A DNA stretch of 16,000 nucleotides from Ostreibacterium oceani (GCF_009362845.1 NZ_WHNW01000015.1:8785-24784), one strand, 5' to 3'. Positions 4,267 to 12,131 are shown, counted from the first letter of the stretch. Notes: a model not told the origin generated them from the letters alone. Made by a program: numbers and translations.

Positions 4267-5360
4267 TACACACCTTGTTTTAAACTTGCTTCGATAAATG
4301 GATCCAAATCGCCGTCTAATACGGCCTGTGTATTGCCCGTCTCTACCTGTGTCCGTAAATCCTTAATACGACCAGAGTCCAAGACATAAGAACGAATTTG
4401 GCTGCCCCAACCAATATCCGACTTGGTTGCCTCGAGGGCCTGTGATTCTGCTTGGCGCTTGAGCATTTCCAGCTCATACAATTTTGCCTTTAGTTGCTTC
4501 ATCGCCGTGTCTTTATTTTGATGCTGCGAACGGCCGTTTTGACACTGTACGACGGTATTGGTCGGCAAGTGCGTGATACGAACGGCTGATTCGGTTTTAT
4601 TCACGTGTTGTCCGCCAGCACCTGAGGCACGATACACATCAACGCGCAAATCGGATGGGTCAATTTCAATTTCAAAACTGTCATCGATTTCTGGCGATAC
4701 AAATACCGATGCAAACGATGTATGTCGGCGCGCACCCGAATCAAACGGCGATTTTCGCACCAACCGATGCACGCCTGTCTCGGTTCGTAGCCAGCCATAG
4801 GCATATTCACCTTGGACATGAATGGTCGCCGATTTGATACCAGCGACTTCACCGACGGACTCTTCGATAACCTCTACTTGAAATCCTTTTTGCTCTGCCC
4901 AACGCAAGTACATTCGCAGTATCATACTAGCCCAATCTTGGGCCTCTGTGCCACCCGAACCCGACTGGATGTCAAGGTAAGCATTATTGGCATCGGCTTT
5001 GCCTGAGAACATACGGCGAAATTCTAGCTGTGCCAATTGCTTTAGCGCGGTGTCAATATCAGCGGTAATGTCATCAACCGTGTCTGTGTCTGCTTCTTCC
5101 TGTGCAATTTCTAACATGCCTTCTGAATCAAGCAGCGTGGTACGAATCGTATCTAGCGTGTTGATGTTTTTTTCTAGTGCGGTTTTTTCTTGGTTTAACT
5201 GCGCTGCGGTGTCGGGATTGTCCCAGACCGCAGGCTCAGATAGCTCACGCAGGACTTCTTCGAGGCGTTCAACCATCGCTTCATACGCCATGTAGTCACG
5301 CATGGCCAATTCGCGGGCACAGCCGTCTTTAATTTGCTCGAATAAGTGCGCTAACTCCAT
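4266..5360 (-). CDS. prfB: Peptide chain release factor 2
   Basis: It carries the SPF tripeptide (VRKSPFDS) and the GGQ motif ([13 protein letters not shown]). I place the start at the ATG at 5360 ([13 protein letters not shown]..), which gives 364 aa, the usual RF2 length. The 53-aa extension in the ORF track (to 5519, GTG start) has no RF2 similarity and overlaps the predicted promoter. Confidence 0.93.
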
Positions 5361-5558: not shown

Positions 5559-6206
5559 TTAAGTCGTATATCCGTAATTGCGTGGTGTCCCTAAGTGGTC
5601 GTTTTGGTAATAGCTGTAGCTTAAGCTATCCCCCGCTTTGTCGATTTTGACCAATGGATTGGTGGTGTAGGGGCTGTTTGGCTCGTACAAATAGCCCTGA
5701 ATAAACTCACCCCGCTCGTCAAACTCAGCCGTCAGTCCGTTGTGCGTGTAGAAGTAATACGTGGTCTGGCTATCGTTGCTTTTTTGCACGGTTTTCTTAA
5801 CACGGCGGTTTTCTAAGTCATAAGTATTTTGCTGGACGAATTGTTGCCCTTCTTGCCCACCGCGAGTAACGCTCACCAGGCGCTGACGCACGTCATACGC
5901 ATAATCGGTGGTGAGATTGCTGGCGGTCTCGACCAACTGGCTGGTATTGCCGTTGGTGTCGTATTGGAAATTGTTAAGCGGTGTGTTAATCAGCTGATCA
6001 CGCGCGTTGTATTGCCACTGCCCCGTCCCCGCTAACAAATCACTCAAGCGATTACCCACCTTGTCATACGAATACGTCTCGTTATCCAAAGTCGGATGAT
6101 TGGCTTGAATCAAGCGATACGCCGCATCATAGCTATAATCATACACGCCATGCTCGGTGGTTTTTTTGAGGATATTCCCCACCTTGTCATGATAGGCTCT
6201 ACTCGG
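5559..6206 (-). pseudogene. Orphan Rhs/YD-repeat fragment, truncated at both the 5' and 3' ends
   Basis: The translation carries successive YD repeats (YHDKVGN, YDYSYDAAYRL, YSYDKVGNRL, FQYDTNGN, YAYDVRQRL, YDLENRRV). It ends with ..YSYYQNDHLGTPR, the opening motif of the Rhs-associated core, then NYGYTT-stop. It has no N-terminal domain, the first ~25 codons of track ORF 5559..6287 are non-homologous read-in, and it lacks the rest of the core and any C-terminal domain. Confidence 0.85.
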
Positions 6207-6576
6207 AATCTGACCCACTATTCGTACTATCTGTGCCACCGTAGTCATTATTTCCATATGAAAGCGCCGAACTTGGCTCAGCACCATTTAAATAATTCAA
6301 CTTTACATCAAGATAAATTTCATCATAGTTGGCTTGTTGCACCTCCTCTTCGAAGTATTTCTTTATCTCCACTTCATCGCCAAAGCAAACCAATGCATGA
6401 TATTTAGCCAAATAAGATAATTTGCATGCATCAATTGTTTTAGTGATTTGGGCATAAGTGTAGGATGATTGACGACCATAACGACGCACCAGATGATAAG
6501 AAAGTTTGCGAATACAGGTCTTAATAAGTTTTTTATTATAACACCTACGTAACCAGCTAAACATATCAAACCTCAT
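6199..6576 (-). CDS. Small hypothetical protein with a basic N-terminal half and an acidic Gly/Ser/Asp-rich tail. Candidate immunity or accessory gene of the Rhs module.
   Basis: The ATG at 6576 is 4 nt after the stop of the preceding ORF (the track uses TTG at 6579). The sequence is MRFDMFSWLRRCYNKKLIKTCIRKLSYHLVRRYGRQSSYTYAQI...NNDYGGTDSTNSGSDSE. The DNA is AT-rich. I recognise no enzymatic motif, signal peptide or TM segment. Confidence 0.55.
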   Translation of the reverse strand: MRFDMFSWLRRCYNKKLIKTCIRKLSYHLVRRYGRQSSYTYAQITKTIDACKLSYLAKYHALVCFGDEVEIKKYFEEEVQQANYDEIYLDVKLNYLNGAEPSSALSYGNNDYGGTDSTNSGSDSE

Positions 6577-6579
6577 CAA

Positions 6580-6939
6580 CTAATTAGCGAAATGATTAAC
6601 GAAATGTAACTCGGCATAATCGTTATCGACATCCAACTCATAAGTCACCTCATAATTAATCTCTTTTTCTGATAAATTTTGAGAATGGACGAAAAGCAGC
6701 ATTGAGGCAGTATAACCAACTACAGCATTACCAGGAATAACAGTAAACATACTTTTAAACATCATTTTTTTATAATCAGTATGAGACCTCATTAATGGAA
6801 AGATATGTTTGCATAATTTTAGGATATACTGCCGTTGATTGAAAACCACAGTGACCGAATCTCCCGCTAAAAGGCATCGAAATATATGACGAATCGGTTC
6901 TATTGATTTCCAAGTCATTTGATATGTGATTTTTTCCAT
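6580..6939 (-). CDS. Hypothetical 119-aa protein in the canonical immunity-gene position, immediately downstream of the Rhs C-terminal domain
   Basis: The ATG lies 12 nt after the stop of the chimeric Rhs-CT ORF. The DNA is very AT-rich (spot counts 25-35% G+C). There is one moderately hydrophobic stretch (MFTVIPGNAVVGYTASMLLFV). I recognise no family. Confidence 0.55.
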   Translation of the reverse strand: MEKITYQMTWKSIEPIRHIFRCLLAGDSVTVVFNQRQYILKLCKHIFPLMRSHTDYKKMMFKSMFTVIPGNAVVGYTASMLLFVHSQNLSEKEINYEVTYELDVDNDYAELHFVNHFAN

Positions 6940-6951
6940 AACGATAATAAA

Positions 6952-7539
6952 CTATTCAATCGCGTTACATACTGTAATTACGCAACCAGCTAAAATCGCA
7001 CCACAGCCACCAAAACATATCGCAGCTGTCCATGGCGTCTTTGTCCATGGTGATGTGATGCAAAATACAGTACACAGTTTGAATGATGACCAACAAAACT
7101 TCCCTCTATTTTTTCCTTTTGGTGATCCGCCAGGTGGAGTGGGTTGTGTGCCAGGAGGTTCAATGGTTTCTATCCCACCTGGAATGCTAGGCTTTTTCTT
7201 TTTTAGCCCATCTTCGTCCACAAACACCAACGGGTTTTGGCGCGCATACCCATACGTATTAATGCCACCTGCTAATCCAATCGGGTCGGTTTGCAAGTAG
7301 CGACCTAGGTTAGGATTATAATCCCTGTGGTAGTTTTGGTAAAGGTTAATTTCTTCGTCATGTATCTGCCCTGCATCACGTTCGAATAACTTGACCGCTA
7401 ATTGTGTTTCTAGTGCGGCAATCCGCGAGGAAATCGCGGGCTGGGTGGTATAGAGCTTTTCTGCCGTTTTATGAAAGTTTTTCAAGGCGGCTAGCCAAAC
7501 AAACGCTTCTAATTGTTTTATAGTAAAATTCAATGACAT
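6952..7539 (-). CDS. Chimeric ORF: LysR-type HTH remnant (aa 1-56), then the Rhs core C-terminal end (aa 57-112), then an 83-aa Cys-rich hydrophobic C-terminal toxin-like domain
   Basis: aa 1-56 are IKQLEAFVWLAALKNFHKTAEKLYTTQPAISSRIAALETQLAVKLFERD, an LTTR winged HTH. aa 57-112 are GQIHDEEINLYQNYHRDYNPNLGRYLQTDPIGLAGGINTYGYARQNPLVFVDEDGL, the Rhs core tail. aa 113-195 are KKKKPSIPGG..FCWSSFKLCTVFCITSPW..AAICFGGCGAILAGCVITVCNAIE. The reading frame is intact, but it may be a non-functional fusion. Confidence 0.8.
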   Translation of the reverse strand: MSLNFTIKQLEAFVWLAALKNFHKTAEKLYTTQPAISSRIAALETQLAVKLFERDAGQIHDEEINLYQNYHRDYNPNLGRYLQTDPIGLAGGINTYGYARQNPLVFVDEDGLKKKKPSIPGGIETIEPPGTQPTPPGGSPKGKNRGKFCWSSFKLCTVFCITSPWTKTPWTAAICFGGCGAILAGCVITVCNAIE

Positions 7540-7609
7540 CGCAATACTATAGCATTTTTCATGAGCCAGACTGCGAAATTAACGTCCATATCGGTCCAAA
7601 AGCGCATCT

Positions 7610-7646
7610 GCGTTCGTCTTTTCTGACCGCGTTCGTCTTGTCTGAC
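7610..7646. repeat. Tandem 19-bp-period duplication (GCGTTCGTCTTtTCTGAC c GCGTTCGTCTTgTCTGAC)
   Basis: Two 18-nt copies with one mismatch sit at 7610-7627 and 7629-7646. They lie in the 159-bp spacer between the cytochrome b561 stop and the start of the LysR remnant. Confidence 0.8.
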
Positions 7647-7698
7647 TGCCTGTACCTGCCAGGTTATCCCATCGATTAGATAAAAAATACCAAACGAG

Positions 7699-8235
7699 TT
7701 AGCGATGAATCATGCGTTTGACCAGATGTGTCTTTGACCAAAACGATAAAAAAACAACCGCGACTACATGCGTGGCAATCAAATAAGGTAGTATCTCCGC
7801 CAAGGTCTTGTGCCAACCCATCAACGCATAGGCCCAATCATAATCATAGCCGTACTCATAACCCAGATAGCCTGTCGCAACCGTCAACAACAACACGACC
7901 CACAATAACCAAATCATCCAACCACCAAGCGGTGTATAACGTGAATGGATTTTTTCTCGGTTTTTAATGGCGCGAAAATCTTGCCAAATAATACGCGGAT
8001 TGATGGTCAATTTTGGCCCACCCAAAATACCAATCAGCACAATCCGTAGTAGCACGGCAAACCCGATAATAAAACCGACATTTTCGTGCAGCTTGCTCTC
8101 TGGCTGGCTGATCCACAAATTAACAACGACCCCGATAGCAACCAGCCAATGAATTAACTTCGCCAACAAAGGAAAATTGATATCATGAGCCGCTATATTT
8201 TGCTGGCGTGACGCCATTTTTTTAAATAAATTCAT
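7699..8235 (-). CDS. Membrane di-haem cytochrome b561 family protein (CybB/YceJ-like)
   Basis: It has four predicted TM helices, and the His pattern matches E. coli CybB: LIHWLV, LHENVGFIIGFAVLLRIV, and GWHKTLAEILPYLIATHVVAVV (compare WHETLANLGYFVIGLHAAAAL). The start is uncertain. I prefer the ATG at 8235 (MNLFKK..). The track start at 8274 is a TTG. Confidence 0.75.
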   Translation of the reverse strand: MNLFKKMASRQQNIAAHDINFPLLAKLIHWLVAIGVVVNLWISQPESKLHENVGFIIGFAVLLRIVLIGILGGPKLTINPRIIWQDFRAIKNREKIHSRYTPLGGWMIWLLWVVLLLTVATGYLGYEYGYDYDWAYALMGWHKTLAEILPYLIATHVVAVVFLSFWSKTHLVKRMIHR

Positions 8236-11159: not shown

Positions 11160-12131
11160 ATGACAATCAAACAACTGCGCTATATTGTCGCAGTCACTGA
11201 AAACCAATTCAACATCTCTTATACCGCTGAGAAACTCTTTACTTCTCAGCCCGGTATTAGCAAACAAATCAAGCTGTTTGAAGAGAGCTTAGGGTGTAAA
11301 ATATTCACCCGAAATGGTAAAGCCTTAGTCGGTCTAACGCCACTAGGCAATGATATTGTTGAACAAGCAAGAATCATCCTAGCCGAAATCGACAACCTCG
11401 TTGTCATCACAAAAGCCAACCACAGCGAAAAAAACACCACGCTCACCATCGCCACCACGCAAACCCAATCGGGTTATGTCCTGCCAGGGGTGCTCAAGCA
11501 ATTTCATCAGCAATACCCCAACATCAAGTTAATTATCGAAAATGGCACAATGGACCAGTTAATTGAGATCGCCAAGCACCGTCGTGCTGATTGTATTATC
11601 CTATCAGGAACCAACGATACCTTAAAGCGAGAATGGCTGCCCAACATGTTGGTCATTCCTTGTTTTCAGTGGAGCTTTAGCGCAATTTGCCCGCCAAACC
11701 ACCCGCTCGCCAAAATGACCACGCCTACCATTGACTATATTGCCGCCAATCCTATCATCACCTATGTGGCGTCGGCTTTACGCACGAGTACGCTAGATAC
11801 CTTCCCTAACATTATCGCCACATCAAACGACCCACAAGTCATCAAGCAATACGTCAGAAATGGCATGGGTGTCGGTATTATTGCCAGCATGGCTTACGAC
11901 AAACGTATCGACAGTGAGTTAGTTGAAATTCCATTGCAAGGCATCTTGCCCAAATGCACGACGATGATTGCCGTTGAACGCGCCAATATACTTCGACCGC
12001 ATGTACACCGATTTATTAAGCTATTTGCACCGCACATCACCAGCGAAGACTTCGAAAGCGCCAATCACCAACAAGACATTGATCCAGTCGAGTCCCCCTT
12101 ACCCGATCAAAGTAGTCATTGGTTTATTTGA
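11160..12131 (+). CDS. cysB: LysR-family transcriptional regulator, CysB/Cbl-like
   Basis: 323 aa. The N-terminus [54 protein letters not shown] parallels E. coli CysB ([54 protein letters not shown]), and the length matches. Calling it an orthologue rather than a paralogue is an inference. Confidence 0.75.
   Translation: [323 protein letters not shown]

Follow-up and report, generated by a model that had tools for sequence, protein, structure and literature searches.

A 195-aa ORF at positions 7539..6952 on the minus strand of a 16,000-nt stretch of DNA (the window) joins the start of a LysR-type transcriptional regulator (LTTR) to the end of an Rhs core in one uninterrupted reading frame. 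The window belongs to a 29.9-kb contig of the draft genome of Ostreibacterium oceani strain ML27, a marine bacterium of the Cardiobacteriales. Domain searches with the predicted product matched HTH_1 (Pfam PF00126) on aa 7-58 (E 1.1e-15; 57.8 bits, cutoff 26.6) and the Rhs-associated core Rhs_assc_core (NCBIfam TIGR03696) on aa 56-112 (E 2.5e-19; 69.6 bits, cutoff 32.5), both far beyond chance. The second match covers profile positions 20-76 of 76, which is the last three quarters of the core, and the same segment aligns with the extreme C-terminus of solved Rhs cores in the PDB (E 9e-12 to 1e-5), namely 8h8a, 8qjc/8qjd, Tse5 (8cp6), RhsA (7q97), and TccC3. An earlier note on this DNA had assigned codons 1-56 to a LysR HTH with a switch at codon 57, and had expected the Rhs core on aa ~57-112. 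The HTH and the core were recovered, but the LysR-derived DNA extends to codon 58. The annotation of the protein is inconsistent, with NCBI naming it "RHS repeat-associated core domain-containing protein" and UniProt/UniRef "LysR family transcriptional regulator".

Four segments can be delimited along the ORF, all on the minus strand. The LysR stub (codons 1-58; 7366..7539) consists of the winged HTH alone, as delimited by the HTH_1 match and by comparison with an intact allele at the DNA level (contig L001) and the protein level (P0003). It ends in the junction codons GGG CAG (Gly57-Gln58; 7366..7371), placed by the DNA alignment to L001 and by the Rhs paralogue P0002, and the peptide spanning the junction reads ERDAGQIHDEEINLYQNYHR. 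The Rhs core tail (codons 59-112; 7204..7365), defined by TIGR03696, the PDB alignments, and the aspartates D85 and D108, ends in DPIGL-(18)-DEDGL, with cleavage expected after L112. The variable tip, distinguished by its hydropathy and composition, comprises the remaining 83 residues (113-195; 6955..7203) before the stop codon at 6952-6954, in accordance with the unrelated 83-aa tail described earlier.

Neither parent protein is complete in this product. PF03466 (LysR_substrate) has no Pfam match in the 195-aa fusion, and a tblastn search of the window with residues 59-309 of the intact regulator recovered no remnant of the effector domain; its sole match was a weak one to an unrelated intact LysR gene at 11160-12131, which bears out the claim that no LTTR effector domain lies downstream. 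Because both the linker helix and the effector-binding domain are missing, the predicted stub cannot be a working LTTR. On the Rhs side, Pfam and NCBIfam detected no YD repeats (PF05593 / TIGR01643) in the ORF, and an N-terminal delivery domain (PAAR, prePAAR/TMD, VgrG-binding, or TcB-binding) is missing, the N-terminus being the LysR HTH. Since the fusion has neither a YD shell nor a PAAR/VgrG-docking N-terminus, we infer that it can neither act as an Rhs effector nor be delivered, and it is probably non-functional.

The autoprotease dyad of Rhs proteins consists of the two aspartates of a DPxGL-(18)-DPxGL motif (PMC9637101, PMC8765631), identified by mutagenesis as D1324 and D1346 in RhsA (PMC8765631) and as D1141 and D1164 in Tse5 (PMC9637101). 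Both residues are kept in the fusion, where D85 belongs to DPIGL and D108, 23 residues further on, to DEDGL. The replacement of YDP by YNP and of DPxGL by DEDGL had been taken as a mark of damage to the autoprotease. That interpretation is not supported, with both aspartates kept and the same changes found in 5/5 other Rhs tails of O. oceani, all of which carry YNP and a second motif without proline, D-x-x-GL (variants DELGL, DVYGL, DALGL, and DYDGL). Their occurrence in every tail of the species indicates that these are traits of the lineage and not decay of this copy, and damage specific to the chimera was ruled out since all paralogues share both features. Structural work on Rhs proteins describes a protease plug formed by a C-terminal region far larger than the part of the core retained here (PMC8765631), and self-cleavage of the fusion is therefore considered unlikely.

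The tip begins with a 35-aa linker rich in Pro, Gly, and Lys, followed by approximately 48 hydrophobic residues with seven Cys; its last 27 residues (aa 169-195) are rich in small residues and have a mean Kyte-Doolittle hydropathy of ~1.9. A word search with the tip and the following ORF concatenated returned only the fusion protein itself, and an exhaustive HMMER search of 1.84 billion representatives added two low-complexity matches (E ~1e-4). BLASTP against the hydrophobic tip of another O. oceani Rhs protein, P0009, was not significant. AF2, run on the single sequence of the chimera, gave a poor model (pLDDT 43.8), with a helical hairpin at aa 145-194 reaching pLDDT 65-73. That the tip is membrane-active is a guess based on its composition and on the example of pore-forming Rhs tips.

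Twelve nucleotides past the tip stop codon begins an ORF of 119 aa (ORF119; 6580..6939, minus strand), with a G+C content of 0.333 compared to 0.453 for the whole window. ORF119 matched no Pfam or NCBIfam family, had no homologue in the word search, and was not recognized by PADLOC. Its structural model is of an alpha/beta protein and is moderately confident (pLDDT 64.7, pTM 0.61), with no Foldseek match to the PDB below E 0.01. ORF119 appears to be unannotated in GenBank, because accessions MPV86973 and MPV86974 run consecutively across it and its exact sequence is absent from the protein collection searched. By position, it is a candidate cognate immunity gene; because neither the tip nor ORF119 has homologues, the putative toxin/immunity assignment is one of position and composition. 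The two frames are open by chance in 0.5% (tip) and 0.01% (ORF119) of shuffles; both being open beyond chance suggests that they were coding recently, a pattern compatible alike with selection and with extreme recency.

Further along the minus strand lies an intact DUF6559 gene (6199..6564; Pfam E 2e-12; 121 aa in RefSeq, annotated form P0132). Only one other homologue was detectable, the family being very sparse in the word-indexed search: a paralogue in a same-species relative (contig L005, 155-523), 60% identical, which occupies a different locus and adjoins a PLP enzyme of Cys/Met metabolism. DUF6559 was considered as an rhs immunity family and dropped, its sole other homologue standing beside the PLP enzyme and not beside rhs; a link to rhs is uncertain. 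An Rhs YD-repeat fragment cut at both ends follows (5559..6198, minus strand; 213 aa by translation; RHS_repeat E 5e-8, TIGR01643), 0.75 kb downstream of the fusion ORF and ~200 nt upstream of prfB. Its YD homology sets in near the DUF6559 stop codon and extends to ...NDHLGTPR, after which come six unrelated codons and then a stop; of the 38 profile positions of the PF03527 'RHS' motif only 3-13 are matched, so that the fragment stops inside the DHLGTP motif. The prfB gene itself (RF2, 364 aa, MPV86972; 4266-5360, minus strand) starts at 5360 with MELAHLFEQ and is followed by lysS. It is a single uninterrupted ORF without a programmed +1 frameshift site, unlike E. coli prfB, which has one.

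G+C content drops from ~45-50% to 32-37% over the ORF119/DUF6559 segment, at which no IS element, tRNA, Rfam match, or notable flanking direct or inverted repeats were detected. The 16-kb window holds no full-length rhs gene, and the stretch from the LysR stub to prfB is a patch of rhs debris rather than an organized rhs locus. The Rhs tail (7327-7342, encoding LYQNYH) and the end of the YD fragment (5595-5610, encoding YYQNDH) agree at 15/16 positions in a minus-strand 16-nt word of repeat family D7, TTACCAAAAC[T/G]ACCAC, which is a possible substrate for further recombination in the locus.

The ancestral state of the LysR gene was recovered from a relative represented by contigs of sequencing run SRR29340340. 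Two of them flank the locus on opposite sides and align with the window at 99.1% identity over 1919 nt (L003) and 97.1% over 6.7 kb (L004), which indicates a relative of the same species with the same gene order, 97-99% identical. In this relative P0003 is an intact 309-aa LTTR with both HTH_1 and LysR_substrate domains, to which residues 1-58 of the fusion are identical (100%). Its gene lies on the 3.4-kb Logan contig L001 in the position matching that of the fusion, after the cytochrome b562/b561 genes, and is followed by a gene of the D-Glu-cyclase family and the TRAP gene dctP. Bases 1-515 of L001 align with window positions 7880..7366 at 99.2% identity (four mismatches), and the match then stops. 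Thus the intact LysR gene that the earlier note had proposed to seek in relatives does exist, and its homology to the window ends sharply at the junction.

At the DNA level, the window reads GCAGGGCAG|ATACATGAC and L001 reads GCAGGGCAG|GTCAGGTTA; in codons, GCA GGG CAG|GTC AGG of the intact allele corresponds to GCA GGG CAG|ATA CAT GAC in the window. The Rhs paralogue P0002 reads RFPGQVHDEEINLYQ at the equivalent site, and Gly-Gln occurs within DAGQV in the LysR allele and within FPGQV/I in the Rhs tails. The presence of this dipeptide in both parents suggests that the crossover used at most six shared bases (GGGCAG), with the Rhs side deduced from protein paralogues only. The breakpoint was previously put near 7371/7372; the alignment to L001 keeps it in that vicinity and refines it to within 7371..7366 or at 7366/7365.

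The genes beyond the breakpoint were searched for in ML27. The window contained no sequence resembling dctP, the D-Glu-cyclase gene, or the LysR effector domain, and at 90% identity the D-Glu-cyclase and DctP proteins of the relative each cluster alone, without an O. oceani member. Housekeeping proteins of ML27 (LysS, ArgA, PabA, SdaA, and RF2) are all in that same protein collection, where the LysS and RF2 clusters are singletons. Because the clusters lack O. oceani members while these proteins are represented, the loss in ML27 is inferred to comprise, at a minimum, the last 250 codons of the regulator plus the pair of genes behind it, the D-Glu-cyclase-like gene and dctP, which probably constituted the LysR regulon.

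These comparisons also bear on whether the junction exists in the cell or was created during assembly by mis-joining an rhs orphan locus with an ordinary LysR locus. The junction comes from a draft assembly with a contig of 29.9 kb, and the Rhs tail is a multi-copy repeat, present in at least six near-identical copies in the genome, of the kind that breaks or mis-joins assemblies. However, a graph-based mis-join would need more than the 6 nt, at most, that the two sides have in common, and the repeat is confined to one side of the junction. Moreover, an intact LysR locus elsewhere in ML27 would be expected to contribute D-Glu-cyclase and DctP proteins at >= 90% identity to its proteome, from which they are absent. 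With only six bases in common a graph mis-join cannot arise, and the genes supposedly displaced do not occur in the proteome, which makes an assembly artefact highly improbable.

The fusion protein (P0001) is a singleton among 5.8 billion clustered proteins, and none of its 181 significant matches covers both halves or joins HTH_1 with an Rhs domain. A selected domain combination, in which a small DNA-binding protein with an Rhs-derived C-terminus would have its own function, is consistent with a frame that is open throughout and with the annotation of the fusion as an ordinary protein by both NCBI and UniProt. It is contradicted by the singleton status, by the nearest relatives of the two halves (a full-length LTTR, 100% identical over residues 1-58, for the N-terminal half and Rhs orphan tails for the C-terminal half), and by the lack of the LTTR linker helix and dimerization surface in the 58-residue HTH. 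These comparisons leave this explanation a negligible probability, so that it is effectively refuted. As between a conserved 195-aa family and a recombination scar, the alternatives posed by the earlier note, the singleton speaks for the scar. An intact allele in a same-species relative together with a fusion protein found nowhere else points to a scar that is recent and strain-specific.

The C-terminal half of the fusion has close relatives within the genome, namely five further O. oceani proteins (MPV85798, MPV85799, MPV86190, MPV86527, and MPV86530), 133-209 aa long, whose tails match residues 59-112 at 80-97% identity but lead into different short tips. Two pairs of these proteins share contigs and have accession numbers that are adjacent or nearly so, an arrangement typical of orphan arrays. 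The 181 significant search matches included no long Rhs protein of O. oceani that carries this tail; because full-length Rhs proteins of the species are missing from them, its rhs genes may all be orphans or pseudogenes. The tips of these proteins (P0002, P0004, P0005, P0006, and P0009) are unusually short (~70-100 aa) and Cys-rich, with a C-x-C-x-W-x-C-I-x-C pattern common to P0002 and P0006, and hydrophobic Cys/Gly tails occur in P0009 and the window tip.

The annotated starts of four other tails (P0135/P0005, P0004, P0006, and P0009) read MHDEEINLYQ or MNLYQ, equivalent to chimera codons 59-64. Judged from protein starts, five of the six O. oceani tails seem to begin within codons 57-64 of the chimera numbering (window 7351-7371), a few codons from the LysR/Rhs junction. 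This clustering of five of six starts hints that the breakpoint may not be random, and the O. oceani Rhs orphan cassettes may share a fixed 5' end at Gly-Gln/His-Asp-Glu-Glu. If true, this would imply a defined mechanism of cassette insertion instead of random breakage.

Upstream of the fusion, the 159-nt spacer that separates the LysR start from the cytochrome b561 gene (7540..7698, minus strand; L001 alignment) differs from the intact allele by one mismatch, at 7663. Hence the start codon and upstream region do come from the LysR gene, as the earlier note had held, with the ATG kept and a single base of the spacer changed. The spacer contains a 19-nt tandem direct repeat at 7610-7647 (GCGTTCGTCTTTTCTGACC / GCGTTCGTCTTGTCTGACT; repeat family D3) that is conserved in L001 and may be a candidate operator of the now truncated regulator. 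A consensus scan found no sigma-70 match upstream of the fusion ATG, sigma-70 matches overall being no commoner than in shuffles, and no Shine-Dalgarno sequence was recognized there. Because the promoter region and ATG were inherited nearly unchanged, the fusion may be transcribed and translated. A sigma-70-like sequence, TTTACC-17-TATAAT (10/12), occurs at 7315-7343 on the minus strand, where the conserved Rhs tail encodes NLYQNYHRDYNP, and a copy would accordingly be present in each orphan tail of the genome. Transcription of the tip and immunity ORFs could start from this site, but shuffled sequence yields matches of this kind at least as often.

Expression from the inherited start raises another explanation, corresponding to the self-intoxication idea of the earlier note, that capture of a promoter and start codon turned the silent orphan tip into an intracellular membrane peptide, produced independently of secretion and neutralized by ORF119, the two forming an addiction-type toxin/antitoxin pair. 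Losing the oligomerization domain of an LTTR would be expected to abolish autorepression, and the ATG and spacer are nearly unaltered. The tip ends hydrophobic (aa 169-195, ~1.9) with a helical hairpin predicted at low confidence, and ORF119 follows after only 12 nt and is far longer than chance at 33% G+C. In style the tip resembles pore-forming Rhs tips such as Tse5-CT (PMC9637101). However, neither the tip nor ORF119 has a homologue or family and ORF119 has no fold match, no promoter or Shine-Dalgarno sequence is recognized upstream of the ATG, the tip stays joined to 112 foreign residues unless the truncated autoprotease works, and a singleton gives no comparative test of selection. We therefore consider such a pair unlikely, and it is very improbable that the tip is now made in the cell as a tail-anchored, membrane-active peptide that ORF119 must neutralize. 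If it were so, the locus would show a contact-dependent weapon giving rise to a toxin-antitoxin-like addiction pair.

The fusion is, in our view, very probably a strain-specific scar of illegitimate recombination in ML27 that has placed an orphan rhs-CT module in frame from a LysR start codon. Broken after codon 58, the LysR-family gene would have been joined to an rhs core that was itself broken close to its 3' end, by way of at most 6 nt of shared sequence (GGGCAG, Gly-Gln). The event would have removed the effector-binding domain of the regulator and at least the next two genes, leaving behind 54 core codons, an 83-codon unique tip, and the 119-codon ORF, in frame from the LysR ATG. This agrees with the original proposal that an rhs 3' module recombined into a LysR gene and the rest of the gene was lost, as the relative has an intact allele whose homology ends at the junction. 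Either a simple deletion reaching a resident rhs locus or a replacement by an incoming cassette would account for the outcome, and the in-frame join is most simply a one-in-three accident. As in any orphan module, ORF119 would be a possible stand-alone immunity gene, and the tip could be a silent reserve cassette, movable onto a full-length rhs gene via the 162-nt conserved tail.

Orphan rhs-CT/immunity modules are displaced rhs 3' cassettes described in Enterobacteriaceae, Dickeya, Serratia, and Xanthomonas (10.1101/2025.05.08.652813, PMC10539506), and are defined by a missing N-terminal region with retained 3' core homology that includes a conserved motif (10.1101/2025.05.08.652813). The ML27 fusion resembles them in lacking the Rhs N-terminus and shell, in keeping a short 3' core with a DPxGL-type motif, in having a different variable tip directly followed by a small low-G+C ORF, and in being accompanied in the genome by five more tails with other tips, some of them adjoining. 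In contrast to these modules, it is preceded not by a full-length rhs/immunity pair but by the cytochrome b561/b562 genes and a LysR stub; it possesses a genuine ATG together with the upstream region of the regulator; and no known family includes its tip or candidate immunity ORF. Compared to LTTRs (HTH_1 plus LysR_substrate, ~300 aa in total), the fusion agrees with an intact 309-aa LTTR in residues 1-58 and gene position, whereas it has no linker helix or effector-binding domain. Similar to the T6SS Rhs effector Tse5 of P. aeruginosa (PMC9637101, PMC10684867), its core ends in DPxGL-(18)-DxxGL with both Asp and its tip is short and hydrophobic, but it lacks the YD cocoon and the PAAR/VgrG-binding region, and the tips share no sequence similarity. 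Pore formation by the fusion tip is a conjecture from this analogy.

The 6-nt shared word, the loss of DNA, and the scattered rhs fragments are features common to Rhs 'rearrangement hot spots' and microhomology-mediated fusions. Classic rhs rearrangements use long homology between rhs cores, whereas at this junction one partner, LysR, is unrelated. What is unusual relative to known orphan rhs modules and rhs rearrangements is the in-frame 5' partner; the fusion is not a new kind of protein. As an event in a single genome its general importance is small. It carries a warning for annotators, in that a single protein goes by an Rhs-core name in one database and a LysR name in another. The locus also offers a clear case of rhs debris reshaping neighbouring genes, in which the ancestral allele is available, the breakpoint is placed to six bases, and the lost genes are identifiable. 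Finally, it illustrates that an orphan toxin tip can gain translation signals by accident, which is one conceivable route from a secreted weapon to an intracellular toxin.
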